From the IMG/VR virus record IMGVR_UViG_3300022562_001652, positions 49,816 through 113,815 of that record: a stretch of 64,000 bases of DNA, one strand, 5' to 3'. Positions 24,024-37,383 of this stretch are shown here, piece by piece; positions within the stretch are counted from its first letter, which is position 1, and every line of letters begins with the position of its first letter. The notes under the pieces are model-generated. The model made no database searches. It saw nothing but the letters and a program-made list of their open reading frames with translations, and was not told where the DNA came from. Position numbers and translations under genes: made by a program. The DNA is from a virus.

Positions 24024-25454
24024 TCAATCGTCGTTCACGTTATCGAAGATCACGTACTTCTGAGGAGCACGAGCGATCGGAGCGATGTACATGCCCTGCG
24101 CCCAACGCATCGACAGCGCCTGCGTCCCGAACGGGATCTTGAACATCGGCGCGAGCTGAATGAGGCCAACACACTCCTCGTTCATCTGGAACATGAACGC
24201 GCGCGACTTCCCAGGAAGGAACCTGTTGACGTCGTACGCCGTAGTCGTAGCCGCACCAGGAACGCGAGGCACGCTCATGATGAGCTTCTCGGTCCCGGCC
24301 GCTCCTCCTACCGCACTACGGTAGATGTCGTAACACGTTGCCGTGTCACCACCACCACCATCCGTAATGACGAGGTTCACGCGATCGCCAGAGGCCGTCA
24401 CAGCGACACCACCAGCCTCCTGCACGCCAGCCGAGGAACCGAAGCGGTTTCGCGCGGCGACCTTGTACTGATACGTGCCGATGTCCGACGTCGCGAACAG
24501 TGTTCCCTGTGCCGCAGTGATACTGCCCACGACCGACACGATCGACGACGGAGCCCGAACAGCCGTAGCAGAAGCAGGGGCGAACTGCGATCCTCTGTCT
24601 TTCCCAGGCCGCAGAAAGATCGACTTCTTCAGGTTCACTTCGTTCGACTGCAGCTGGACGGCACGAAGAGCCATGCCGATCACGCCGGCTTGTGGTGCAG
24701 GCAGAACGATCCGCTCCTTGGTGTGCTGCTGCTTCCCGAGATCCGAGAGAGCGCGCATCGACAGGTACAGATCAGTGGCTTCTCCGTATGCCTCTTCGAT
24801 GATGTTAGCCCCCTCCTCGAGCTTGTCGTAGGAGAGGGGGCCGCCACGAAGATCGAGGATGTTCGAAGCCCCGAACACCGAATCCTCACGCAGCAGTCGA
24901 TCGTACCCGTCGTACTCCTCCGGCACGCAGTCCGAGCGACCGTTGTACATGGCCTTCTCCGCCATCTTCATCAGCCACAGAGCTCCGTTGGCCGTGTACA
25001 TGGCGATGACGTCACCGTGCGCCGAACGCACGAGAGAAGTCGGGTGGTCGACTTCTCGCTGCGTTGCCAGGTACTTGACAGGGACGAACTTGCGAACGAA
25101 AGACGACTCCTGCACCTGCGGCGCTTCACCCGCACGAACGAAGGCTCCGTTCTCGACGCCGTACGAGGTCTGCTGATTAAACTCGTGGACCGTTGAGTAC
25201 GTCGGTGCCTTGGGAACGTCATGAAAGAGCACGATGTGACGAGCTCGATACGTGAGGACGCGGAGCGTCGCCTCGAGCGACTCCACACGCAACGCGCCGG
25301 AACCCGAAACACGCGGACTCTGGTAGTTGGCCGCAAGAGCCTTCTTGAACTCCTCGATCGGCATCTTCTCGAGAGGACCCTGCCGACCAGCAAAGCCTCC
25401 GTAGAACCCGCCTCCAAGACCTTCGTAGTCACGAAGAGAGATATCGCCGTACAT
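24024..25454 (-). CDS. Major capsid protein (HK97 fold, Herelleviridae-like precursor with an Ig/FN3-like insertion)
   Basis: 476 aa; 'KAL...GSGALRVESLE.TL..LT' and 'STVHEF' motifs; AAGGAG RBS. Confidence 0.9.
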   Translation of the reverse strand: MYGDISLRDYEGLGGGFYGGFAGRQGPLEKMPIEEFKKALAANYQSPRVSGSGALRVESLEATLRVLTYRARHIVLFHDVPKAPTYSTVHEFNQQTSYGVENGAFVRAGEAPQVQESSFVRKFVPVKYLATQREVDHPTSLVRSAHGDVIAMYTANGALWLMKMAEKAMYNGRSDCVPEEYDGYDRLLREDSVFGASNILDLRGGPLSYDKLEEGANIIEEAYGEATDLYLSMRALSDLGKQQHTKERIVLPAPQAGVIGMALRAVQLQSNEVNLKKSIFLRPGKDRGSQFAPASATAVRAPSSIVSVVGSITAAQGTLFATSDIGTYQYKVAARNRFGSSAGVQEAGGVAVTASGDRVNLVITDGGGGDTATCYDIYRSAVGGAAGTEKLIMSVPRVPGAATTTAYDVNRFLPGKSRAFMFQMNEECVGLIQLAPMFKIPFGTQALSMRWAQGMYIAPIARAPQKYVIFDNVNDD

Positions 25455-25469: not shown

Positions 25470-26369
25470 CTACTCCGCCGAACGAAGGTCCCGGACGATC
25501 TCCGAAACCAGATTGCTGGGCAGCGCCCGGGGGTTGTACCGATTGGCCTCGAAGATCATCACCACGTCTTCAAGTGACTTCCTCAGCTTGCCCTCTGGCG
25601 TGGTATCCACCTTCTGGTAGAGCCAGCCCTTGATGAGGTCGGAAGGAACCTCGTCGAGAGGGTGTCCGGTGAACAGGAGACTGTTCTGCTCCGTCTCCTC
25701 GTGAGGATCGACGATGTCGCCTTTCTCCAAGACCATGGGACGATTGCCATAGTCGACGGGACTGTTGAGTGCCTTCTGGACTCCGTTCCCTATCTTGGAT
25801 AGGCGATCTTTGATAGTCGCGAGGCTACGAGCGATCGAAGCCATCTCCTCAGAGAGGACTACGAAACCCTTCGCGAGCTTCTTGTTGAACTCGGACTGCT
25901 CAGCGCGCACCGCAGTTCCGTGGCTGACAAGAGCTTTCGCCAGACCATTGAACTCCGCTTCGAAGTGTTCGCTGATAAGCGTGACGAAGGAATCGAGGAA
26001 GTCGCTTGCGTTGAACGCCTTGCGCATCTCGCCGTCGCGCTCCGCACGCTCGCGAAGTGACTTCCGGGTGTCGCTGTCGTCGTCGTCGTCATCGTCGTCA
26101 TCATCTGAACCATCGTCCGACGACGTGTTGTCTGAGTCGTCGTCTTCATCAGACGCCGACATCATCTTGGCCACGTGCTCGCCAGAGCGGCCCGCCTTAC
26201 CTGAAAGAGGAGTCCCCACCTTGGGAAGACCTCCTTCGGGATCTTGTGCAAGGACAGGATCACTCTTCTCGACGACAGCATCTTGAAGCTCGTCGAGCGC
26301 CTTGAGAAGACTCTCTTCCGAGACGATCTCCTCTTCTGCCTTCTTGATCTGCTTGGTCTTCGTCGCCAT
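25470..26369 (-). CDS. Capsid scaffold protein
   Basis: 299 aa; acidic poly-Asp tract, coiled coil, ~10 K|A/S/G motifs; lies upstream of the capsid gene. Confidence 0.7.
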   Translation of the reverse strand: MATKTKQIKKAEEEIVSEESLLKALDELQDAVVEKSDPVLAQDPEGGLPKVGTPLSGKAGRSGEHVAKMMSASDEDDDSDNTSSDDGSDDDDDDDDDDSDTRKSLRERAERDGEMRKAFNASDFLDSFVTLISEHFEAEFNGLAKALVSHGTAVRAEQSEFNKKLAKGFVVLSEEMASIARSLATIKDRLSKIGNGVQKALNSPVDYGNRPMVLEKGDIVDPHEETEQNSLLFTGHPLDEVPSDLIKGWLYQKVDTTPEGKLRKSLEDVVMIFEANRYNPRALPSNLVSEIVRDLRSAE

Positions 26370-26381
26370 GTGCCGCTCCTC

Positions 26382-26738
26382 TCAGGCGTACGCCCCCAGG
26401 AGCCCACCCACGGCGGTCACGCCAGTGATCGTGTAGACCAGAACTCCGTTGAGAGTGACCGTGATCGCGTTCGAGACCACCGAGCCGAGGATCAGGACAT
26501 CCCCAGGCTGAAGAACGAGGCCGTCAAACGTGAGATCGGTCGGACCCGCAGCGTCGTTGAACGCCGCATAGACGGTCGCGTACGCGACCTGGCGACGCGC
26601 GTCGAACGTCGTCACGGGGGAGACACCGCTGGACGCGTTTGTCGGCGACGGCGCCGTCACGTTGTCCGGAACGGTGAAGGTCTCGCCCTGAACCACCTTG
26701 AATCGCGTCGTGCCGCTGAAGTTGATTCCCGGATTCAT
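26382..26738 (-). CDS. Small beta-rich head protein (decoration-like)
   Basis: 118 aa with GGAG RBS in the head module. Confidence 0.45.
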   Translation of the reverse strand: MNPGINFSGTTRFKVVQGETFTVPDNVTAPSPTNASSGVSPVTTFDARRQVAYATVYAAFNDAAGPTDLTFDGLVLQPGDVLILGSVVSNAITVTLNGVLVYTITGVTAVGGLLGAYA

Positions 26739-26763
26739 CCTCTACTCCTTGTTGCCGCCGTCC

Positions 26764-27072
26764 CTAGTACAGAGACGCCGCGTTGCCCTCGAGAACGACG
26801 AAGGTGACATTGCGGGCCACCGTATCGGCGATCAAGTTGCCGAAAGCAGCATCCTGCTTGGCGATCGTGATGACGAAGGTGCCCGGAACGGTTCCATAGT
26901 CCCACGCGGGCTCAAAGCCATTCGCGATCGCGGTAAGACCGCCTTTCGCGAGCAGGGAGACGACTAGAAAGTTGTTGTGTCGGATGCCCAGATCTACCGT
27001 GAGAGTCCCGGTAACCGACACAGTTCCTTGGTGAAACTGTGGGAAATTCGGGTGTCGATAGTACGGGACCAT
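26764..27072 (-). CDS. Small beta-rich head protein (decoration-like)
   Basis: 102 aa with GAGGAGG RBS in the head module. Confidence 0.45.
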   Translation of the reverse strand: MVPYYRHPNFPQFHQGTVSVTGTLTVDLGIRHNNFLVVSLLAKGGLTAIANGFEPAWDYGTVPGTFVITIAKQDAAFGNLIADTVARNVTFVVLEGNAASLY

Positions 27073-27075
27073 TGT

Positions 27076-27837
27076 TCATCCTCCTCGGGCACGATGTACG
27101 ACGAAGCGGGCTGCCCTCTGCGTGGCCTTCTCCGTCAAGTGGGGCCACCTGTGCTTCACCAAGCGCATCGCGTGCTGAAACGCAGGACCGCTGGTCAACA
27201 AGGTCGGCGATGATTCGAGCTCTTCAGGGCGAAGAACACCTGGACCACCCGCAGCCGGGCTGGTCGTAGTAACTGACAAGGCCTTATCGGCGGCGTCGCT
27301 CACAGCAGATGGATCAGCGAAGGCCTTGGTAAGAACAGACCAAGAGCAACTCGTGTTCACAGGCATGCGTGTGATGGCGACATCGCGGACTTTGGCACGG
27401 AGGATCTTGTTGTACCCGTCTCTCTCGACCACCTTCCCTTCGATCGAGAAACCGAGTTTGCGAGGAGCTTGCATGCGTGCGAGGCTCTTGGCAAGCTCCC
27501 AGATCCGATCAGAAGGCGGATACCCAGGAATCAGATTCCCCTCCACCCACCAACGTCCTTTTTCCAACCGTGCGTCCGTCGGGTATCCGAGAGCAGCGGA
27601 CGTCTCTTGCCGATGGTTATCGTTGAACCACCCCCAAGAAACGAACTCAGAGAAATCCAACCCCTTTTGGACGACGATCTCCCCCTGTCGATCGAGATCT
27701 TCCGTCGAGGCAAAACCACCGATTGATCGACTCACTTCTACGTCGTCACCCGCCTTCTCCAGGATCTGGAAAACCCCGGGCACAAAGACGTTGAAGACGT
27801 CTTTGTCGGCTTGTTCAGAAGTTGTCTCTTCCAGCAT
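27076..27837 (-). CDS. Prohead (maturation) serine protease
   Basis: Probable start ATG 27837; 'IGGFASTEDLDRQGE', 'NDNH', 'LGFSIEG', 'VAIT.MPVN' HK97-type protease motifs. Confidence 0.9.
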   Translation of the reverse strand: MLEETTSEQADKDVFNVFVPGVFQILEKAGDDVEVSRSIGGFASTEDLDRQGEIVVQKGLDFSEFVSWGWFNDNHRQETSAALGYPTDARLEKGRWWVEGNLIPGYPPSDRIWELAKSLARMQAPRKLGFSIEGKVVERDGYNKILRAKVRDVAITRMPVNTSCSWSVLTKAFADPSAVSDAADKALSVTTTSPAAGGPGVLRPEELESSPTLLTSGPAFQHAMRLVKHRWPHLTEKATQRAARFVVHRARGG

Positions 27838-27875: not shown

Positions 27876-28745
27876 CTACGAATTCAGAATCTGCAAAGGT
27901 GGGAAAGGAGAACCACTTCCCACAGCCTCTCTGAACATGGTTTCGTACGCCGGAAAGGAGGAGACACCCATCGTCCTTTGCGACACCTTTGCCCAAGGCA
28001 TCTTGTACGGGAACGTCTCCAAGAAAGCCTTCCTCACACAAGCATGTTCTACTTCAACAGGACTCACTAGTCCCGACAACGCATCGCGTATCTGATCCTC
28101 CGTCACGCTCATAAAGGAGTCCCACAAGGGATCCAAATGAATGCGCTCGTGGAAAAGGTACTTGTGGAAGATTTGGTGATAGAAACGCAACGTTTGTCCA
28201 AAAGAAACAGCGTTGTCCCACGCCACCAGACCATGCGACACGGTCCCGCCATCCAGCAGAACTCGCACGCCGACGTTGTTAGCGTGCCTGTCTCGAGCCC
28301 CTGCTACGAAGTCAAGAATCACAAGCTTCGTCCACTGTGTCTTTGGAACCAAAGAACAGACGGCTATGAGATCACTAACCCAGTTCGGGTTTCGTCGTGA
28401 ACGAAGCGACTTGCGAAACGATGATAGAGGAGCAGCAGAGATCCATGCCTGTGCAGACGCTTCTGCGCCATCGAGCTCGAAGAGAACTGTTTCAGGAACG
28501 ATGTCTTGGTACCCGTACAGGCTAGCAAGCTGCCAAAAAGCGACCTCTCGGCGAGGATGTGACAAGGCAGTTATTCCACGCTGCGCTACCTTGCCGCTAG
28601 GCAGCTTTTCCTTCGAAAACTTCACCAATGCCCGGGTTCCGTCCTGCCACCGTGCTTCGAAGGTTTCGCTTTTACCAACCTTGATAGGGGTCATCTCCCT
28701 GGGAGGAGATGATGTCACTCTCTTTTGGAAATCAGAAGGACCCAC
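27876..28745 (-). CDS. Atypical HipA/PI3-PI4-kinase-like protein kinase
   Basis: 289 aa; catalytic Lys (LVKF), 'REVAFWQL', 'VPETV', 'DRHANN', 'DN' motifs. Confidence 0.75.
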   Translation of the reverse strand: MGPSDFQKRVTSSPPREMTPIKVGKSETFEARWQDGTRALVKFSKEKLPSGKVAQRGITALSHPRREVAFWQLASLYGYQDIVPETVLFELDGAEASAQAWISAAPLSSFRKSLRSRRNPNWVSDLIAVCSLVPKTQWTKLVILDFVAGARDRHANNVGVRVLLDGGTVSHGLVAWDNAVSFGQTLRFYHQIFHKYLFHERIHLDPLWDSFMSVTEDQIRDALSGLVSPVEVEHACVRKAFLETFPYKMPWAKVSQRTMGVSSFPAYETMFREAVGSGSPFPPLQILNS

Positions 28746-28748
28746 CGC

Positions 28749-29510
28749 CTATGACCCCTTCTCCGATACGTGCACGACACGAAGCTCACAGCGACACCCT
28801 ACATGGACAGAGCCAACTACAGGCAACCACTCTGTGGCATTCTCCCCTTTAAACGTAGGACGGCCAGCTCTACGACCAACATTGCTGCCGTTCGACATAA
28901 GCTGGTCAATACGAAAGACACGAGGTCTGCTCCCGTCAACCGTGTAGAGAAGTCGACAATAGGAGCAGCAGTCTGGGTGTGTTTTCTTCCAGACCAGCGT
29001 GGTAGTCCCACTCTTCTTGATGATGGACGAAGCCCTGCCCTCCTCCATCGCATCGTGGATCGTGGTCCCTATGTCACGACGCCACTCACGAGAGGCGACA
29101 GATAGCGCCTTCTCAATCTGACCTTTGGCTATAGCCAAAGCGGCTCGTCGTGCTTTGCTGAGGTCTCTGGCAGAGAGCTTCCTCTTACGCAGAAGAGAAG
29201 AACCTTCTCGTAGAGCCAGGCGTACTTTCGACAAGAGACGATCACGAACAGACTGGGCTATGTCGGTAAGCTGATCTCGCAAAGCATCAGCGGCTGCTCG
29301 ATCGATAGGGACCTTGCCTTTTTCGATCATAGACCTGACGTACCACACCGTCGGCATGCTGCTGCTTCTAGATCCAGCACCAGACAGAAACCCGAGAGCC
29401 ACGCTTACCTCTGGTAAGTCGCTACCTGTAACTCCCTTGATGAGTTTGGCATGTGCGTCTCGCACACGACGCACCAAGGCTGCTTCTTGACTTTTGGACA
29501 ACAGCCTCAC
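28749..29510 (-). CDS. MuF/SPP1 gp7-like minor head protein
   Basis: 253 aa; 'DCCSYC..LY' and 'HVGCRCEL' (HxxCRC) MuF signatures. Confidence 0.75.
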   Translation of the reverse strand: MRLLSKSQEAALVRRVRDAHAKLIKGVTGSDLPEVSVALGFLSGAGSRSSSMPTVWYVRSMIEKGKVPIDRAAADALRDQLTDIAQSVRDRLLSKVRLALREGSSLLRKRKLSARDLSKARRAALAIAKGQIEKALSVASREWRRDIGTTIHDAMEEGRASSIIKKSGTTTLVWKKTHPDCCSYCRLLYTVDGSRPRVFRIDQLMSNGSNVGRRAGRPTFKGENATEWLPVVGSVHVGCRCELRVVHVSEKGS

Positions 29511-30949
29511 GCAGCGTCCTCCTCACCGGTCGTCACAGTAGGTGAAGTCGGAAACATCCTCTTAGCCCCCTCGATCACCGTAACGAAATCTGACGACTTC
29601 GTAGAAGCCACGAAGACTTCACGAACAACAGGATCCCCCTCGTTGGCTCTATTGAGCGCTTCAGCAAGGAACGACAGCAGCTCGTCAAGACGCTCTCTCA
29701 GTACTTCGAGCGTTCCGTCCTCGGGAGAAGTCATGACGCGCAAGCGAAGGGCCGAAAGACAGGTTTCTCCCAGCTTGGTATCGGGGACCACTCCAGTAGA
29801 CAGCTCGTACGAAAGCTTTTCAGGATGCCAAGCAACCATGAGTGCGGCAGCACAGTACAACAGAACTACGACGTGCAACGGCGGCTGCCGGAGCTCATCC
29901 AGGCTGATCTCAGCTAGAGAGCCGATACTTTCTTCGTCTTCAGAAAGAAGTTTCTCGTTTGGAGAGATGCTTTCTTCGTCCCCCGCCACAAGCAGCCCTA
30001 GCCTAGATAGAGCTACGATAGCTGCTAGCACGTCATCGCACCAATCGGTAGTGCCAGACATCCGACTCCCTACGCTCGCTAAGAAAAGCGTGTCGGGATG
30101 AGAGGCCCCTTTGAGCCATGCGTCAGGAGAGGCGGCGTCTCCTTTCTTCAAAGAAGGAACACTTGATTCCTTCTCTCCGAGTAGGAAAGCCTGTCGACGA
30201 TTTTTTGACGCAACCACAATCGAAGAAAAGGTTGTCGGAAGACGTTCTGCACGAACGAGCGGATGTGGGGCTTCTTTCGAAACGTACGAAAGCGTCACGT
30301 GTGGGATATACCCATGCTTCCTAGACATGAGGCTTCCCAGCGATCCGAGCTGAGACAAGAGTCTGTTACGAAAATCAGGAAGCTCAGGTGAGTCTACGAG
30401 AGCGACGATCACGTCTTTTCCGTCACTGCTGTCGCTAGCAGCAAAACGACCCACACCCCCAACTTCCCCAGAAAAAGGGGCCTGTTTCGCAGCAAATCCC
30501 GACACGACAGAACAGAGACTGTCCCACGTATCACCGTCTGACGTTTCCGGGAAATAAGCGAGCGTCACGTGCATGTCTTCAGGAGAGACCGACCCGAGAG
30601 GAGCCAACTGCTTTCCTGTAGTCTGGGGTACTTCAAGAGCGATCATGATCCCAGAATGTTTGTTCTCGTTTGTCGTCGATTTGACGAGATCTTCTAGATC
30701 TCCAACAAAGATCCCGTCGGCCTTCTCCAACGGCTTCTTGGAAAGCACATCATCTAGTACAAAGCGCACGTCTCGTAGACACGCCTCGTACGTCGAGGAG
30801 AGTTCATCCTCCAAAGATGCAGCTGCTCCCGAAGACTTTGATCGGACGAGAAGCTGCGCCTTGAGAACGAAGTCGTCATCGAGCTGGGCTCCGTCGCCAA
30901 GTACGGCGTCGAAGACGGAGCCCAGCTCTTGTGAACGAACCCGTCGCAC
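29507..30949 (-). CDS. 2H-phosphoesterase-domain protein (Acb1/LigT-like) in the head module
   Basis: 480 aa; twin HxT motifs HVTLAY and HVTLSY about 90 aa apart. Confidence 0.8.
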   Translation of the reverse strand: MRRVRSQELGSVFDAVLGDGAQLDDDFVLKAQLLVRSKSSGAAASLEDELSSTYEACLRDVRFVLDDVLSKKPLEKADGIFVGDLEDLVKSTTNENKHSGIMIALEVPQTTGKQLAPLGSVSPEDMHVTLAYFPETSDGDTWDSLCSVVSGFAAKQAPFSGEVGGVGRFAASDSSDGKDVIVALVDSPELPDFRNRLLSQLGSLGSLMSRKHGYIPHVTLSYVSKEAPHPLVRAERLPTTFSSIVVASKNRRQAFLLGEKESSVPSLKKGDAASPDAWLKGASHPDTLFLASVGSRMSGTTDWCDDVLAAIVALSRLGLLVAGDEESISPNEKLLSEDEESIGSLAEISLDELRQPPLHVVVLLYCAAALMVAWHPEKLSYELSTGVVPDTKLGETCLSALRLRVMTSPEDGTLEVLRERLDELLSFLAEALNRANEGDPVVREVFVASTKSSDFVTVIEGAKRMFPTSPTVTTGEEDAA

Positions 30950-30958
30950 GGGCAGCTC

Positions 30959-33900
30959 CTACCGCTGTCGGAACAGCTTGTCAATCGGTGGCACCGGCCT
31001 GAGAGCAGTGCCGTTGTCACCCTTGGAAATCAGATCTGCCGTGTACCGATCGAGACCTGAATCCACCCAGGTGAAGAAAGGACTTCCCGCAACGACCTCG
31101 GGGGCCATGATGCCCTTCATCAAGGCCACCTCGTCGACAGCCACCCCTTCCCCTACGGAAGCGTCGTCGTCGGCGTCGGTGTCGGCATCAGCATCAGCGT
31201 CAGCCTTCTTGATCTTCACAGACGAGTCCGCCTTCTTGAGATCAGGCTTTTCACGAAGAGCCTTTCCTACGATCTGGCTCTTCGTGATGGGTTCGTCACA
31301 GTGGGGACAGTCGATGATAGCCTTCTCCTCTGCCATCTCGTTCCCGATCTCACTCTTGAAAAGGTCGTGCATCTTTCCCATTTCGTTCTCCTCCAGCGGC
31401 TTCACGCTCTTTCCAACCTTACGAGACATGCCTGTCTGTCTAGACAGGTTTTCATGAGCATGTGCCAGCGCCTCGTGTACACCAGCACCAATGTGGTTGT
31501 TGTTGGCGCGCTCTCCATCAGCATGTTTTTGGTGTGTATAGCCCCACATCTGGTGGTCGGCAGATGTGTTGGGACCAGGGACTTGGGAACTAGTGTACGA
31601 GTAAGCCATGTGCGTCGCAGCTCGTTGTACTTCCTCGTGCGCCTTTGCTGCTTGGGCACTTTTCACGCCGTGCTTTAGCTGCGCCATACGGTGGTTGACG
31701 ACAGCATGATGAAGCTTGAGTTCTGAGATCTCCGCTCCAACGTGATCAGAGCCTTCATACTGTCCAGAAGAAACGAAGCGCGATGCCTTTTTCACGACAG
31801 GACCTTCTCCTTTCTCTGGAGCAGGTACGGCGGGCATTTCTTGAGTCTTGCGAGAGTGTGTTCGCAAAAGGTTGATCTTCGCCTTCTCATGCGCCACCGA
31901 CAGAGCACGGTGTACCTTGCTCGTCACACCCCTGCCCGAGGTTTTTGCATCAGCAGCCAATCCACCATGTATATGTTCCCACGTCTCATGGGTAGCTCGG
32001 TTAGGATTCGTAGTGTAGTGGCGCGCGATGTGGTCAGCTGCACGTTCCACGGCGGCATGCGTTTTTTGCGTATAGGGATGCTCGTCGCCGTGCTCCAGCC
32101 GAGCAATGTGGTGCTGCACCACAGCATGGTGCAACTTGAGCTCAGCGAGAGCAGCCCCTTTAGCGTCGCTACCCGTATACTGCTGAGGGGGTTTTTTTTC
32201 TTCTTCCTCCCCTTTCTTGATCTTCCGCGTCGACGCGCCAGTAGAGACCGCCGATACCGAAGATGCAGCCGGAACTTTGGCGGCCATAAGATGGTTGCCC
32301 CCTAGCTTGCTAAGCTCCTCTCGATGGGCCCAAGAAAGAGCCTCGTGCGCTTGAGCAGTGTGTGCATCGCCCGCCGACCGAGCAGCGCCAGCTCGACCAA
32401 GATGCTCCACATGAAGAGCCCTGTGCACACCTAGCATGTGAGAGGCGTAGGCCCGCGAATCATCGTGAAATGTCGAGGACCCCTTCGGCGATTTTGGTTC
32501 GAACCGTCCTTGTACAGAAGCCACGTGTGAAACATGCAGCTTGGCCGCGTTGTGTAATGCTTGAAACGCCCGTTGCGTCAGCGGATGGTCCGGGCCGTTC
32601 TTCACCGACGACATGTGGTGGAGCAGCGCTGCCTGGTGGACCCGTAGATACGAAAGCTCGGCCTTCTTTCCTCCAGATCCATCTGCCTTCGACAGCTGGT
32701 CGAGAAACGAGGAAGCTGCCTTATTCGTAGACAACCCCGCATGAGCAGCCTCTTGGTGGACTTTGGAGAAAGTGCGGTGTATTAGGAGAGTACGCTCTCC
32801 ATAAGGAAAAGCCACTCCGCTACCGGAAGATAGTCTCTTCTTGTTGCTCTCGTAGGCATGGGCCAGCCGATCGTGGTGCGCTGCCAAAGAAAGATGTGCC
32901 TCCGGAGACAGGCCAGAGAAGTGTTCCCCTACGTGCCTGCGCACGCGGCGTGATAGGGTCTTCTCAGAAGCTTTGCCTTCAAGCACACGCTTGGCATTTG
33001 CGTGCATCTCCGACGTAGGCAAGCTCGCGTCTACGGGAGACCACTTCTTCTTCTTCGGAGAAGAGCCTGTTGGAAGATGCGGCTCCGTCATGTATCGCGT
33101 GCCGCCCACGTTTATGATCGTCTTGGCGAGCTCCTCGAACGTGCTCGAGGCATCCATCGCAGCGACGCTCTTCTCGACCAGAGAAGGGAAAGAAGCATCG
33201 CGATCAAGGTCGATGAAGATCCCTACGAAGGATTTCACCTTCGAGTGAGGAGCGTTCTTCCGACGCTCGCTTCGATCGTATTGTTCGATGCGTTTCACTG
33301 TTCCCGCCTCGTCGTTGTTGACGGAGACGAGATGCGCCCTACGTCGAGCCTCGTAGTCGATCTGGTGTCTGTTCGAGGACGAAACCTTGCTTTTCGTCTT
33401 CTTGCCCTTCTTGGGAGGAGGCGCCTTCTTCTTTTGCTTCTTGTCTTTACCTAGCCACTTGCCCTTGGTCTTCTTCCCCGTCTTAAAACGTCCGTAGGGA
33501 ACGTTTCCGTGTACACGCCCTGAGCGTGCCTTCTCCTGCGAGACGTAACGAGGCTTCCCCTGCGTGTCGAAATGCTCGACCTGTCCTCCTCGACTTCCGA
33601 CCCCTTCGCCGGCCTTCTCTACGTCGACGTAGATGCCGACGCTTTTCCCGACCCCTTTTGCTCCAATCTGACGAGCCCGTTGAATATGTGCCGAGGCTAG
33701 AGACTCATGGACCTGGGCAAGGGCTGAATGTGTCGGATGGAGAGGGCTCCCGTCGTTAATTTTGGCATACTTCGGGCTCTGGTTACTGCGCGCCTCTTTC
33801 TCGTGATGCTCCTGCCACGCACGATGCCAACGAGCTTGCGCTTCGTGCTGTCCGGAAGACATGCCCCCAGAGGCTTCCTCCGTAGCCTTCACATGAGCAC

Positions 33901-34972
33901 GTACCGCCCCTCTCCACTGAGACGTTCTGTCGCCAACGTTTTGGTGAGCGAGCCTCATCAGATGGGCACCCGTCTCTCCGGTCGGGTGCATAGCCTGTCC
34001 TGGTGGAGCGTTGCCAGGAAGTGGGGCCTTGACGTACTTCGCTTTGGCTAGATCGAACACCAGCCCCGCCTTCTCCACCTTCTTCAGCTTCTGATAGTAG
34101 TGTGGATCTTCCACCAAGTGATCCATCGCGATCTCACGAGCAAGCTTGAGATCCTTCGTGTGTTCCATCTCGTGCTTCGCTCCCTCATGAAGTTGATCCT
34201 GGTCGAAGTCCTCAGGCTTCTTGTCGTCAGCCTTGCCTCCAGGAATTTGGTCCGCTTTCCCGATACCAGGATATTTTCGACGAACTGAAGAGCGAACCCG
34301 TGTCTTCTCTTCAGGGCTCCCAAACTGAGACACACGAGCCAAAGCGTTCCGAGCATGGGAAGCATCGTGGATGGGGTATCTGCGACCAGGCAACGCGAAG
34401 TCTTTGCTTTTGATCTTCTTCCGAGCTCGCGTCGTCAGCTTGGCTTTTTCAAGGTCAATGACCGCTTCTTCAGACTTCCCGACCTTGCGATCATACTTCA
34501 AGGCAAAGTCCTCCGTATCCGTGCTGCCTGAAAGCTTTCGACGTGTTGGGTACAGCATCTCACGGTGTGCGTCACGCATAGCTGCGTGTGCTATACGTTT
34601 GTGAAACTCGTCATCGGTAATTTCTTTACCAGCACGGTTTCGCAAATCAATGCGAAACTTAGCGGCAGCATGCGCGTTGTAAGCGCGCTCATGATCGTCA
34701 GAAGACATGTGCGTAAGACGTGAAACATGGTTCCGTGCCTCTGCTCTTGCCAGACGGTAGTTAGATCGCGACAAGGCAGACATAACTGCGTATGGGATAT
34801 CGGCAGCCTTCCCAAGATCAGCTACAAAGTCTTCGGACTTCCCACCCCGAAGCTTGTTGACAGTCGCCCAGCCAATCCTCTCAGCTTCCTCCTTCGAGGC
34901 GCCACGACGACGCTCAGAAGCGGTGATGTGCTTCACCTGTCGCTTCTCCTTGGCGCTATGGGAGCCTGGCAT
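30959..34972 (-). CDS. Large basic His-rich multi-domain internal head protein (putative polyprotein)
   Basis: 1337 aa; small domains separated by repeated K|S/A-x5-6-D-[LV]-x-K|A linkers; internal His-rich repeats. Confidence 0.65.
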   Translation of the reverse strand: MPGSHSAKEKRQVKHITASERRRGASKEEAERIGWATVNKLRGGKSEDFVADLGKAADIPYAVMSALSRSNYRLARAEARNHVSRLTHMSSDDHERAYNAHAAAKFRIDLRNRAGKEITDDEFHKRIAHAAMRDAHREMLYPTRRKLSGSTDTEDFALKYDRKVGKSEEAVIDLEKAKLTTRARKKIKSKDFALPGRRYPIHDASHARNALARVSQFGSPEEKTRVRSSVRRKYPGIGKADQIPGGKADDKKPEDFDQDQLHEGAKHEMEHTKDLKLAREIAMDHLVEDPHYYQKLKKVEKAGLVFDLAKAKYVKAPLPGNAPPGQAMHPTGETGAHLMRLAHQNVGDRTSQWRGAVRAHVKATEEASGGMSSGQHEAQARWHRAWQEHHEKEARSNQSPKYAKINDGSPLHPTHSALAQVHESLASAHIQRARQIGAKGVGKSVGIYVDVEKAGEGVGSRGGQVEHFDTQGKPRYVSQEKARSGRVHGNVPYGRFKTGKKTKGKWLGKDKKQKKKAPPPKKGKKTKSKVSSSNRHQIDYEARRRAHLVSVNNDEAGTVKRIEQYDRSERRKNAPHSKVKSFVGIFIDLDRDASFPSLVEKSVAAMDASSTFEELAKTIINVGGTRYMTEPHLPTGSSPKKKKWSPVDASLPTSEMHANAKRVLEGKASEKTLSRRVRRHVGEHFSGLSPEAHLSLAAHHDRLAHAYESNKKRLSSGSGVAFPYGERTLLIHRTFSKVHQEAAHAGLSTNKAASSFLDQLSKADGSGGKKAELSYLRVHQAALLHHMSSVKNGPDHPLTQRAFQALHNAAKLHVSHVASVQGRFEPKSPKGSSTFHDDSRAYASHMLGVHRALHVEHLGRAGAARSAGDAHTAQAHEALSWAHREELSKLGGNHLMAAKVPAASSVSAVSTGASTRKIKKGEEEEKKPPQQYTGSDAKGAALAELKLHHAVVQHHIARLEHGDEHPYTQKTHAAVERAADHIARHYTTNPNRATHETWEHIHGGLAADAKTSGRGVTSKVHRALSVAHEKAKINLLRTHSRKTQEMPAVPAPEKGEGPVVKKASRFVSSGQYEGSDHVGAEISELKLHHAVVNHRMAQLKHGVKSAQAAKAHEEVQRAATHMAYSYTSSQVPGPNTSADHQMWGYTHQKHADGERANNNHIGAGVHEALAHAHENLSRQTGMSRKVGKSVKPLEENEMGKMHDLFKSEIGNEMAEEKAIIDCPHCDEPITKSQIVGKALREKPDLKKADSSVKIKKADADADADTDADDDASVGEGVAVDEVALMKGIMAPEVVAGSPFFTWVDSGLDRYTADLISKGDNGTALRPVPPIDKLFRQR

Positions 34973-35002: not shown

Positions 35003-35410
35003 CTACTTACGGCCCACAGATGCGTCGAAGACGCGTCCCCAGTAACCAGACTCTATCTTGTGCTTCTTCGCGAACTCCTTCAGGTGACTGCCCATGAAGC
35101 CAACGAAGCCCTTCTTCCCTCCAGGAGCCTTGCCCTGGTGAAAAGAGCCAGCGATCTTGTGGATCGTGTCTGGGTGAAAGCCTAGGCGAGCAGCTAACTT
35201 ATCGATCGAGACAGGGAGGGTACTGGCCTCAGGCACCTGCTCCTGCCCAACACTGTTAGAAGGAACACCCCCATTCCCCTTCTTGTCAGCAGGGTACGTG
35301 TACTTGGTGCGTCCTCCTGCACCAACCTTCTTCTTGGAAACAGCACGAACCGGGGTCTTCTTGACCTTCTCGGTTCGCTCCTTCTTCGGCAACGCCTTCT
35401 CCACAATCAT
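35003..35410 (-). CDS. Basic hypothetical head protein
   Basis: 135 aa; begins MIVEK|A; 'GGRTKYTY' motif. Confidence 0.55.
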   Translation of the reverse strand: MIVEKALPKKERTEKVKKTPVRAVSKKKVGAGGRTKYTYPADKKGNGGVPSNSVGQEQVPEASTLPVSIDKLAARLGFHPDTIHKIAGSFHQGKAPGGKKGFVGFMGSHLKEFAKKHKIESGYWGRVFDASVGRK

Positions 35411-35652: not shown

Positions 35653-37383
35653 CTACTCCATATCTATGATCAGGTACTCGTCTTCGTCTCGCTTCTGCTT
35701 CTCTCCTTTGCGGAGATCGTTATCACGAGACACGGAAGCGTGTACGGAGCTGACCCAGTCGTCGCGCAGGAAGCCCTCGTCCACGGGCACTGGCGCAATC
35801 TTCTTCTCGCCGATGCGAGACGCAGCATCGAGAAGACGCTGCGCTCCTTGGTGCTCTTCATGACCGTGGTCTTCTCCCTCAAACATGCGGTCTTCCTCAT
35901 GCTGGGGTTGAGCGGCGGCCTGAGACGCGTCTCCTCCGGCCGCCTGTTGCTGCTGAGCCATCTGCGCCTTGAACTGAAGAGCGGCGATGTACGCAGGGTT
36001 CATGATGATGTCGCCACCCTCCTTCAGAGGCCCTAGATCCTCGAGCTCGCGGACCTCATTTACCGTGAGGTAGGTCTGTCCCTGTTTCGCACGAAGCTCG
36101 ACCGCTTGTTCCTCGGTCTTGGCATCCAGCCCGACGAATTCAAACTCGAACTGATCATCGATCGGCCAGACGACGTGGTTATTCAGAGACTCCGCGTAGA
36201 AATGAAGTAGTGGACGAAGCCCTCTGTCCTTCGATGCCTTCTGCTGTGCTTCGTTCGTCGACATGAAGAGGGGCTGCTGCGCCACGCTGCCACGAAGATC
36301 GTGGTTGATCTCGGCAGGATCTACCAGGAACACAGCGCAGGCACACTTCACCAAGAACTCCACCCAGAGCTGATACTCCATCTCCTTGTTGGTGGCCTGA
36401 AACGGGACCCATTGGATCTCGTCAGAGTTGACGATCGGCGTCTTCCACGCCTGCCCGACGCCTACGAGCTGCTGGTACCAGCTCTTGCGGAGCTCCTCCA
36501 GCTTCCTCTCGTTCAGCTTCCCCTTAATATTCAGGATCCCCTTCGCCGTAGTTCCCTGACTGAAGCCTTTGGCGTTGTAAGTCAGAGCCCACAGAAGCCA
36601 GGTGATCGTCTGAACTAGGATCTCTACTTCCGACAGACCGTAGCCGAAGGATCGGATGTCCGTGCTGGGGTTGCGCACCAAGAAGGCCAGCTCATCGGAC
36701 GTATACTCGCGGACTTTACGCGCATCGATCACCTGCGCATACTCGATCCGGTTTTTGAGTTCCGCCGTAGACGGGGGTGTTCCTCGACGATTCTTGGGAT
36801 GCGCGATCCTGACGGTGCCGGCGTCAACCGCGTGGATCGAATGCAAGCTCCCTCCGCGAGTCCACACCTTCTCGAAACACCCTCGATCCAAGGTCAAGGA
36901 GTCGGGCACGACCTTGCGAAGTAAGTTCGTCAGAGAACCCCTCTTCAGGTTGTACTCAACTCCTGTATTGACCAAGAAGTGAGTCAAGTAGTCGACGCGA
37001 TCCCGCTCCGAGTCGCTGAGCCTCCGAGCCGGATTGCCCCAACGTGGTTTGAATCTGAACCCGACGCTGTACTTGTTCGGCTGGGGCTGGCAGAAAGAGG
37101 TGATCTGGTTCTTCCGAAGAAGAATGATCGAAGAGATGATGTCGACGTGCTTCGCAGCGTTTCGCAGATCGTTATCGGAGAGACGAGAAGGGATATTCCT
37201 GTATCCCATCCCGAACGAGTCGGCCATCATGTCGGGATCGACGAAGTAGGACTTGGGCTCCTCTTCTTTAGGAGGACCGTCGTCGTCCTTGACTCCCGCC
37301 TGAGCAAGTTTCTCGGCAAACGTTCCGAAAGCCTCTATAGCAGCTTTCGTGACTTGTTCCGGAATGAACTCCACTAGGCTCAT
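35653..37383 (-). CDS. Portal protein
   Basis: 576 aa; 'HAVDAGTVR', 'GYGLSEVE', 'FSQG...KGIL', 'KEMEYQ.W', 'GLRPLL', 'TVNEVR' portal motifs. Confidence 0.92.
   Translation of the reverse strand: MSLVEFIPEQVTKAAIEAFGTFAEKLAQAGVKDDDGPPKEEEPKSYFVDPDMMADSFGMGYRNIPSRLSDNDLRNAAKHVDIISSIILLRKNQITSFCQPQPNKYSVGFRFKPRWGNPARRLSDSERDRVDYLTHFLVNTGVEYNLKRGSLTNLLRKVVPDSLTLDRGCFEKVWTRGGSLHSIHAVDAGTVRIAHPKNRRGTPPSTAELKNRIEYAQVIDARKVREYTSDELAFLVRNPSTDIRSFGYGLSEVEILVQTITWLLWALTYNAKGFSQGTTAKGILNIKGKLNERKLEELRKSWYQQLVGVGQAWKTPIVNSDEIQWVPFQATNKEMEYQLWVEFLVKCACAVFLVDPAEINHDLRGSVAQQPLFMSTNEAQQKASKDRGLRPLLHFYAESLNNHVVWPIDDQFEFEFVGLDAKTEEQAVELRAKQGQTYLTVNEVRELEDLGPLKEGGDIIMNPAYIAALQFKAQMAQQQQAAGGDASQAAAQPQHEEDRMFEGEDHGHEEHQGAQRLLDAASRIGEKKIAPVPVDEGFLRDDWVSSVHASVSRDNDLRKGEKQKRDEDEYLIIDME

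Follow-up and report, generated by a model that had tools for sequence, protein, structure and literature searches.

Phage proteins that reside within the head or are ejected from it are normally encoded by separate genes, each with a propeptide of its own, and viral-style polyproteins are, to our knowledge, not known of tailed phages. The capsid-targeting sequence of phage T4 comprises ten N-terminal residues, of which positions 4 and 7 serve in targeting and positions 8 and 10 in processing (PMC9026906), and the T4 internal proteins IPI-III have been described by Mullaney and Black 1996 (reviewed in PMC9026906). In the case of the polyvalent proteins, found in phages and conjugative elements, zincin-like metallopeptidase domains embedded in the chain have been proposed to carry out the processing (Iyer et al. 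2017, PMC5512222), and in the giant phages phiKZ, 201phi2-1 and SPN3US, ejection or inner-body proteins are processed by the prohead protease (PMC5694885, PMC10052503). Here, we describe a 64,000-nucleotide stretch (the window) of an uncultured phage, IMG/VR virus record IMGVR_UViG_3300022562_001652, which carries a single uninterrupted open reading frame (ORF) of 1337 codons at 30959-34972 on the minus strand. We consider it probable that its product is a head-internal polyprotein, cut by the phrog_1028 protease of the phage at linkers derived from propeptides, and the sequence evidence points to a head-maturation protease that separates modules at former propeptides of stand-alone genes. The original prediction, made from this DNA alone, had proposed a capsid polyprotein; the second word of that label is retained, but head-internal (cargo) is a better qualifier because the capsid shell protein is encoded by a separate gene (24024-25454).

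The motif scored was phi-x-K[A/S], in which phi is a hydrophobic residue and the predicted cut, written here as ↓, follows the lysine; chance expectation was taken from composition-preserving shuffles (n=2000). The polyprotein contains 17 such sites, as would be expected for a substrate of a phrog_1028 (phage 812 / SPO1-type) protease, against 5.0 expected by chance, and 0 of 2000 shuffles reach 17. The double-site linker pattern occurs three times, against 0.0005 expected by shuffling. With regard to phi-x-E[AS], no enrichment is observed (2 versus 3.7 expected). Cutting at the strong sites would yield eleven modules (M1 to M11) and seven linkers (L1 to L7), listed here from the N-terminus with amino acid (aa) positions, window coordinates and, where relevant, isoelectric point (pI):

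M1, aa 1-45, 34838..34972, minus strand: basic N-terminal module, pI 11.0, ending in GGK45↓S
L1, aa 46-55, 34808..34837, minus strand: GGK45↓SEDFVADLGK55↓A, acidic, with K↓S before and K↓A after
M2, aa 56-166, 34475..34807, minus strand: His-rich helical paralogue 1, ending in VGK166↓S
L2, aa 167-176, 34445..34474, minus strand: VGK166↓SEEAVIDLEK176↓A
M3, aa 177-239, 34256..34444, minus strand: phrog_16160 / DUF6582-like module, pI 11.7, ending in GIGK239↓A
M4, aa 240-301, 34070..34255, minus strand: DUF5661 module, pI 5.4, ending in VEK301↓A
L3, aa 302-310, 34043..34069, minus strand: VEK301↓AGLVFDLAK310↓A
M5, aa 311-443, 33644..34042, minus strand: His-rich helical paralogue 2, ending in VGK443↓S
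L4, aa 444-453, 33614..33643, minus strand: VGK443↓SVGIYVDVEK453↓A
M6, aa 454-580, 33233..33613, minus strand: GSRGG..GKPRY motif and a Lys-rich stretch, pI 10.7
L5, aa 581-601, 33170..33232, minus strand: long linker, KVK580↓SFVGIFIDLDRDASFPSLVEK, ending at K601↓S
M7, aa 602-751, 32720..33169, minus strand: divergent His-rich helical paralogue
L6, aa 752-762, 32687..32719, minus strand: TNK751↓AASSFLDQLSK762↓A
M8-M10, aa 763-930, 931-1062 and 1063-1188, 31409..32686, minus strand: three tandem His-rich modules
L7, aa 1189-1206, 31355..31408, minus strand: propeptide-like linker, VGK1188↓SVKPLEENEMGKMHDLFK, ending at K1206↓S
M11, aa 1207-1337, 30962..31354, minus strand: acidic CPHC module, pI 4.5, the most conserved of the family

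All six linkers that the original prediction had quoted lie where it placed them, and a seventh linker was found before the C-terminal module. The GSRGG..GKPRY motif is also present, as is the CPHC, which lies at residues 1222-1225. The pI of the linkers ranges from 4.1 to 5.9 (acidic to mildly acidic) and that of most modules from 9.0 to 11.7 (basic), M4 and M11 being the acidic exceptions. The motif is concentrated in the genes of the head. In a crude gene call of the whole 113.8-kb genome (148 ORFs, 35,280 aa), it is 5.2-fold enriched per residue in the head block (40 sites in 4177 aa versus 58 in 31,103 aa; Fisher p 3e-13) and still 3.6-fold enriched per lysine in head-module proteins (p 2e-8); tail and replication genes have 0-3 sites per 1000 aa, and tail genes almost none.

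As far as aligned sequences and deposited chains allow it to be read, the homologous protease lineage cuts at a site that corresponds to this motif, in agreement with what had been predicted for the phage's own protease. The protease has no Pfam, NCBIfam or PDB sequence match, and was assigned by means of PHROGs and of an alignment with annotated Herelleviridae proteases. It is 27-40% identical to the proteases of phage 812 (27%), phage SP-10 and L003, a 98.8-kb phage contig, and the STxxxDxQG, NxxH and LGFSIEG blocks are conserved between it and the phage 812 enzyme. The capsid protein shares 25-35% identity with its counterparts in Herelleviridae (SPO1, SP-10, phage 812/K and Listeria phages). 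That of Staphylococcus phage 812 reads QFQEDVVK24↓S25FQTGYG and is present in the PDB with 463 residues (5lii) and with 439 residues (9row, 9rox, 9roz), the alignment offset being exactly 24; given this offset, the mature chain (9row_B) would begin at Ser25, after V-V-K. In a four-sequence alignment, K24 of phage 812 occupies an invariant column, which reads PIEEFKK38↓ALAANYQ in the present phage, TNLNK↓ALEAGYG in SP-10 and DDLADLRK↓ALTAGQ in L003; SPO1 gp6.1 reads DVDALNK↓ALEAGH. About 23-24 residues are removed from the capsid proteins of phages A511 and K, and HK97 gp4 cuts its capsid protein at F-N-K↓S. A search of the open literature on the Herelleviridae cut site returned no paper, and the anchor of the assignment is the two PDB chain lengths.

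The other head proteins of the lineage carry the same sites. The scaffold-like proteins contain 7 phi-x-K[AS] sites in the present phage, 12 in L003, 7 in phage 812 and about 7 in SP-10. The motif is located near the N-terminus of three of the four proteases, namely the present one (FNVFVPGVFQILEK↓A, ILEK28↓A), that of phage 812 (FNAFVPMDLKK↓S) and that of SP-10 (FFVEADVDLKK↓S), the L003 protease having IEVWHK↓A instead. A phi-x-K↓[A/S] site just after the catalytic domain is invariant in all four aligned proteases (SVLTK↓AF, SFMK↓SF, AVVK↓SF and VLAK↓SM), and probably represents a self-cut that removes a C-terminal tail. In the present protease this site is VLTK171↓A (aa 167-171, window 27325-27339, minus strand).

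A different explanation would be that the chain is a polyvalent virion protein that is not cut in the head: it would stay intact in the capsid, as the N4 virion RNA polymerase does, or be processed after injection, and the peptides would be inherited spacers. Polyvalent proteins are in many cases believed to be packaged as a whole, or to be processed by peptidase domains of their own (PMC5512222), and since six of the modules are paralogous, some of the likeness between linkers could stem from duplication. However, the linkers also flank the unrelated modules M1, M3/M4, M6 and M11, and their DNA, with 31-67% identity, is no more alike than their protein. Because nucleotide identity tracks protein identity in this way, the linkers are not recent DNA duplications, and it is the peptide itself that is conserved. 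Furthermore, the motif is identical to that of the lineage's sites in capsid protein and scaffold and is enriched in head proteins only, and no peptidase domain was found within the polyprotein, which has no match to a peptidase family in Pfam. We therefore regard an uncut chain as unlikely.

Under the preferred reading of a cleaved polyprotein, the linkers should part self-contained modules, as the original prediction had supposed, and this is what the domain models suggest. M3 matches phrog_16160 (E 2.7e-17) over profile positions 2-61 of 69, from the first residue of the segment. M4 matches DUF5661 (PF18905) with 45.3 bits against a cut-off of 27 (E 1.1e-11, positions 16-63 of 65), and on the whole protein the match covers aa 257-301 with 39.5 bits. 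Two independent domain models thus have an edge on predicted cuts, as phrog_16160 starts at 177 and DUF5661 ends at 301. The DUF5661-like label proposed earlier is therefore upheld by a score above the Pfam cut-off. The DUF6582-like label holds in part: M3 reaches 20.8 bits against a cut-off of 27.3 for PF20223 (E 5e-4, positions 16-51 of 83), which falls short, and the match that spans its whole length is to phrog_16160. The K-phi-E end of DUF5661 was also considered as a Glu-type cut site and was rejected, since all 31 relatives have it within the domain irrespective of their linkers.

The N-terminal module M1 is 56% identical to the N-terminus of a 570-aa orthologue from L006, a 7.7-kb IMG/VR contig. 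It had been described as ChaB-like (PF06150), which was rejected: M1 has no Pfam match even at E<=10, and a PDB-sequence profile search gave nothing at E<0.7. Its atlas look-alikes are clusters of 52-55-aa hypothetical proteins, with a weak score of 0.90, and among named atlas clusters DUF7218 comes nearest (0.76) and can serve as a lead only.

An indication of the origin of the linkers is provided by the C-terminal module. A phmmer search with aa 311-1337 against 1.8 billion representatives returned six proteins, all of which match on the C-terminal ~240 residues; no match was obtained over M5-M9, and P0037 alone matched over M10. Among them are small homologues in which the module stands alone, namely P0034 (134 aa, E 3e-18, 22-kb contig), P0035 (131 aa, E 1e-10) and P0039 (202 aa). 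They start with MNKDVRDLFK↓SELGEE..CPHC, MFEDIFK↓AELAGE..CPNC and MSKVADLFK↓SEGV..CPHC, respectively. The polyprotein carries the corresponding peptide internally (EMGKMHDLFK1206↓SEIGNE..CPHC), and it is likewise internal in P0036, P0037, P0038 and in the proteins of L006 and of a further locus, L007, all of which have the CPHC module at their C-terminus. Given that the stand-alone module starts with a 7-10-residue peptide ending in a site, the linkers are best understood as retained N-terminal propeptides. A word search for longer proteins with the C-terminal module retrieved just the polyprotein's own gene call, P0002. In P0038 and P0039, this module has an extra CxxC...CxC insertion.

The remaining bulk of the chain is made up of six paralogous modules (aa 56-166, 311-443, 602-751, 763-930, 931-1062 and 1063-1188), which were found by tiling the polyprotein against itself and contain 6-11% His. 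The best pairs reach E 3e-9 and 1e-6. M2, M5 and M10 all end in VGK↓S; in the tandem block M8-M10, the junctions are IKK920↓G, a possible site, and VKK1062↓A, and the block ends in VGK1188↓S. When inter-linker segments were submitted to AlphaFold2, as had been suggested, the outcome was mixed. Residues 931-1062, modelled with the paralogues as alignment, gave a four-helix bundle (predicted local distance difference test, pLDDT, 80; predicted template modelling score, pTM, 0.67), with ends that are predicted to be disordered at the putative cuts; the model of the C-terminal module was too poor for use (pLDDT 54). The four-helix module has no PDB fold match at E<=0.001, the best being generic helical bundles at E 0.4, and no match in the ESM atlas. 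Judged by sequence, most His-rich modules remain orphans. No enzymatic domain was found in the polyprotein with Pfam, PHROGs or NCBIfam, and neither was a known anti-defence domain, nor a PHROG or Pfam match to internal head proteins. The six His-rich helical bundles, which account for most of its mass, resemble basic internal head proteins more than enzymes.

These modules also bear on the possibility that the protein is an accessory scaffold or core protein, which would be chopped up and whose pieces would leave before DNA entry, so that nothing would be delivered to the host. Its gene lies among assembly genes, its linkers are acidic like scaffold peptides, and its site density is like that of the scaffold-like protein (12.7 versus 23 per 1000 aa). 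However, cuts at domain boundaries would leave folded modules of 5-18 kDa, as the four-helix bundle model suggests, and folded modules of this size are too large for the pores of HK97-fold shells. The modules are basic whereas the scaffold is acidic, the company in which DUF5661 travels (NUDIX, GNAT, topoisomerase IB and 2H domains) indicates a cargo context, and a separate scaffold gene is present at 25470-26369. A purely scaffolding role thus appears very unlikely.

In related phages, a comparison of module content, also proposed in the original prediction, revealed these modules in a different arrangement and divided differently among neighbouring genes, always with K↓A/S junctions. In L006, the portal gene is followed by the 570-aa orthologue, which has the same N- and C-terminal modules and a different middle; the same contig encodes a 631-aa protein with the GSRGG motif. 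In L007, one gene combines DUF5661, GSRGG and a 135-aa module, and the next gene comprises a His-rich module, a double-site linker (VAK↓SELGSYQIISLSDAAMENAMEK↓A), GSRGG and the CPHC module. A VRIIDLNK↓A linker is also found in P0037 (557 aa), together with His-rich helices, a pair of GSRGG motifs and again the CPHC module. The GSRGG..GKPRY motif thus recurs in P0037 (twice), in the 631-aa ORF of L006 and in the 439-aa and 380-aa ORFs of L007. The junctions between shuffled modules in L006, L007 and P0036-38 are again phi-x-K↓[AS], and the excess of phi-x-K[AS] is significant in five of seven relatives' proteins (L006 570-aa, L007 380-aa, P0036, P0037 and P0038; p 0-0.014). In the present phage, the 135-aa module is encoded by a gene of its own, whose product begins MIVEK↓ALPKK; it corresponds to the C-terminal part of the L006 370-aa protein (FKK↓ALPKK) and of the L007 439-aa protein (VSK↓ALPKK). 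From these alignments, this is a case of gene fission or fusion exactly at a predicted protease site.

DUF5661 occurs in 31 other large phage proteins, in which its partners include NUDIX, GNAT, topoisomerase IB and 2H. A strong phi-x-K[AS] excess is found in P0003 (16 versus 3.8 expected), P0021, P0025 and P0009; in others, it is absent or replaced by an excess of phi-x-E[AS], which hints that linker chemistry follows the resident protease. P0009 (AK↓SERLVLDLVK↓A) is encoded in L003 beside a portal, a phrog_1028 protease and a phrog_752 major capsid protein; the double-site linker extends to such more distant DUF5661 polyproteins, whose phages share the head families of the present one. The phi-x-E[A/S] excess is seen in P0012, P0019, P0024 and P0029, and P0024 itself has a Peptidase_S78 domain. 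Topoisomerase IB is fused to DUF5661 in P0004, P0008 and P0019, and the ORF directly upstream of the DUF5661 polyprotein in L007 (L007:3-1241, plus strand) has a eukaryotic-type topoisomerase IB domain (PF01028, E 5e-24). No close relative of the whole polyprotein was found: 50,697 phage records gave matches to two small domains only, IMG/VR gave no locus, and a set of 5.8 billion proteins gave only proteins that share DUF5661.

Taken together, these observations suggest the following course of events. Expressed late along with the portal, protease, scaffold and capsid protein, the chain would be incorporated into the prohead, where the HK97-type (phrog_1028) protease would cut after Lys at phi-x-K↓[A/S] in the short acidic-hydrophobic linkers, giving about eleven modules of 5-18 kDa, most of them basic, and excising acidic linker peptides of about 10 residues; the basic modules would stay with the packaged DNA. 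Each linker would be an N-terminal propeptide that the module behind it has kept, and the polyprotein would have arisen by end-to-end fusion of genes for propeptide-bearing internal head proteins, which relatives reshuffle at the junctions. Cleavage of the polyprotein is well supported by inference from these sites, and we infer its presence in the capsid from the same evidence. The products would most likely be DNA-associated internal proteins and co-ejected factors, and it is plausible that the linkers act as addresses and that the products are injected.

Several observations weigh against this explanation. Cleavage in the present uncultured phage is deduced from the motif, and the length of the 9row chain could reflect modelled residues rather than a measured N-terminus. 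A number of first sites (GGK↓S, KVK↓S and TNK↓A) have no hydrophobic P3 residue, and the M8/M9 junction offers just IKK↓G. The stand-alone homologues were judged from their protein sequences, and in Streptomyces phage JustBecause and virus Rctr197k an S3-like module and DUF5661, respectively, lie within larger proteins instead of standing alone. Finally, CPHC..PITK↓SQ[VI]xxK↓A (aa 1222-1237) is conserved inside the C-terminal module in most of the family; these internal sites may represent a further double cut that frees a Cys-His knuckle of ~25 residues, or a structural look-alike.

The linkers may do more than separate modules. They could be both protease sites and portable capsid-targeting tags, in which phi-phi-x-D binds the scaffold, the protease or the portal core and phi-x-K is processed. 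In the stand-alone homologues, the peptide forms an N-terminal propeptide of 7-10 residues, and it is hard to see what, other than targeting or latency, a small internal protein would gain from one that is cleaved off. The T4 sequence is divided into two parts in the same way, residues 4 and 7 acting in targeting and residues 8 and 10 in processing (PMC9026906). The phi-phi-x-D extension is present in six of the seven polyprotein linkers versus 3 of 33 scaffold sites, which in this post-hoc comparison makes it seem unneeded for cutting; cutting at the scaffold sites is itself a prediction, however. The propeptides of three of the four proteases (812, SP-10 and the present FNVFVPGVFQILEK↓A) and the L003 capsid propeptide (DDLADLRK↓A) have the same form. 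On the other hand, the extension could simply be a P4-P8 recognition element of higher affinity, and an anchoring role could be assigned equally well to the CPHC module, whose position is invariably C-terminal; an extended recognition element or anchoring by the CPHC module explains the data about as well as an address does. A targeting function is therefore suggested only tentatively. Equally tentative is its wider form, in which K↓S-E-x-phi-phi-x-D-phi-x-K↓A would be a portable tag for targeting and release in HK97 / phage 812-type phages and a universal joint for the fusion, splitting and swapping of genes, with the portal tail and the protease propeptide written in the same recognition code. 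The portal tail in question, which the original prediction had pointed out, has the form phi-x-phi-[D/E]-phi-[E/V]: YLIIDME in the present phage (35653-35673), FLRIEIE in SP-10, FFDLDV in L006 and YRIEV in L003. It resembles the P-side of the linkers minus Lys, and the phage 812 portal is without such a tail.

With regard to the genomic setting, the window covers the right-hand 64 kb of a virus record that is complete, measures 113.8 kb and has direct terminal repeats, and the polyprotein gene lies inside a block of head-assembly genes on the minus strand, in the following order:

35653-37383, minus strand: portal, phrog_12, Pfam Phage_portal
35003..35410, minus strand: 135-aa basic protein
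30959..34972, minus strand: polyprotein P0001, 1337 aa, with ATG at 34972 as the true start
29507..30949, minus strand: 480-aa 2H phosphoesterase protein, PF13563 E 7.6e-12
28749-29510, minus strand: 253-aa MuF-like ORF, motif HPDCCSYC...VHVGCRCEL
27876-28745, minus strand: 289-aa kinase-like ORF with a GARDRHANN loop (PI3/4-kinase / HipA-like)
27076..27837, minus strand: prohead protease, phrog_1028 E 8.6e-52
26382-27072, minus strand: two small ORFs of 102 and 118 aa, between protease and scaffold
25470..26369, minus strand: scaffold-like acidic 299-aa protein, 7 phi-x-K[AS] sites versus 1.0 expected
24024..25454, minus strand: major capsid protein, phrog_752 E 6e-79, predicted cut EEFKK38↓A39

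The ATG at 34972 is taken as the true start of the polyprotein because the L006 orthologue keeps MPG.HSA.EKRQ from residue 1; the public gene call P0002 begins 12 aa downstream. Since the protease gene directly follows the portal gene in the Herelleviridae relatives, the five genes between them here (135-aa, polyprotein, 2H, MuF-like and kinase-like) are, on this gene order, an insertion particular to the present lineage. The 102-aa and 118-aa ORFs have no family match and zero phi-x-K[AS] sites.

Two of the neighbours have linker-like sites of their own. The 480-aa protein has, as noted earlier, a double-site linker (LEK↓ADGIFVGDLEDLVK↓S), which is located in front of its 2H domain, and is a candidate packaged enzyme acting against cyclic-nucleotide defence signalling; the Acb1 model on it is weak, with E 2e-4 and a score below the cut-off. 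The kinase-like 289-aa ORF has the N-terminal site IKVGK↓SE. The 2H and kinase-like proteins, which have such N-terminal sites, look nearer to classical effectors than the polyprotein does. The MuF-like ORF ends in ...EKGS-TAG-GCG-GTG, so that one amber stop and one codon, in frame, precede the kinase-like ORF; a MuF-kinase fusion by read-through is possible.

If the proposed processing is correct, a simple rule would predict the packaged proteome from sequence for a large group of phages including Herelleviridae, which are used in phage therapy, and the rapid reshuffling of cargo repertoires would be explained. A further use of the linker would be as a short candidate tag by which foreign proteins could be loaded into capsids of this kind, in the way that the T4 sequence serves for T4. 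If the targeting reading were true as well, any module behind the tag would be loaded into the prohead and freed by the protease, which would amount to a polyprotein cargo system in tailed phages.

In comparison with known systems, the T4 internal proteins IPI-III are like the present modules in being small, basic and head-internal, with an N-terminal peptide of about 10 residues that ends in a prohead protease site; this peptide is removed inside the prohead, and the products, located alongside the DNA, are introduced into the host. The analogy with the T4 capsid-targeting sequence drawn in the original prediction is therefore apt in architecture. The same layout, an N-terminal peptide ending in a protease site, is found in P0034, P0035, P0039 and the 135-aa neighbour. 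Nevertheless, there is no sequence similarity between IPI-III and the polyprotein, nor does the latter follow the I/L-x-E rule: T4 gp21 cuts at I/L-x-E, whereas the present HK97 / phage 812-type protease is predicted to cut after Lys (phi-x-K↓A/S). Unlike in T4, the peptides of the polyprotein are internal, repeated up to seven times per chain and bracketed by two sites, so that many products would result from one gene.

The giant phages phiKZ, 201phi2-1 and SPN3US share with the present phage a large number of head-internal substrates, predicted ones in the case of the latter, a short consensus that can be read from sequence, and families of paralogous internal proteins. In SPN3US, 13 of the 14 mapped sites remove an N-terminal propeptide to give one mature product, and the motif ends in Glu; in contrast, one polyprotein chain would yield about eleven mature products. 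The Herelleviridae (812/K, SPO1 and SP-10) have homologous portal, protease and capsid proteins, and their capsid protein, scaffold and protease likewise carry phi-x-K↓S/A sites, but their protease is encoded directly behind the portal, whereas five genes intervene in the present phage.

Like the polyvalent proteins (PMC5512222), the polyprotein is large and multi-modular, is encoded among virion genes and contains mobile small domains, including DUF5661, that recombine freely. It unites at least five unrelated module types (M1, M3, M4, M6, His-rich and M11). Polyvalent proteins are predicted to be packaged and delivered with the DNA, and their neighbours include MuF-like and 2H proteins, as is the case here. 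Unlike them, the polyprotein has no zincin-like peptidase, its putative cutter being the prohead protease acting at regular linkers; no enzymatic domain was found with the three databases named above, and it consists mostly of orphan helical bundles. Read from its sequence, the polyprotein would thus combine two known patterns, namely the many-module chain of polyvalent proteins and propeptide-like joints for the prohead protease.

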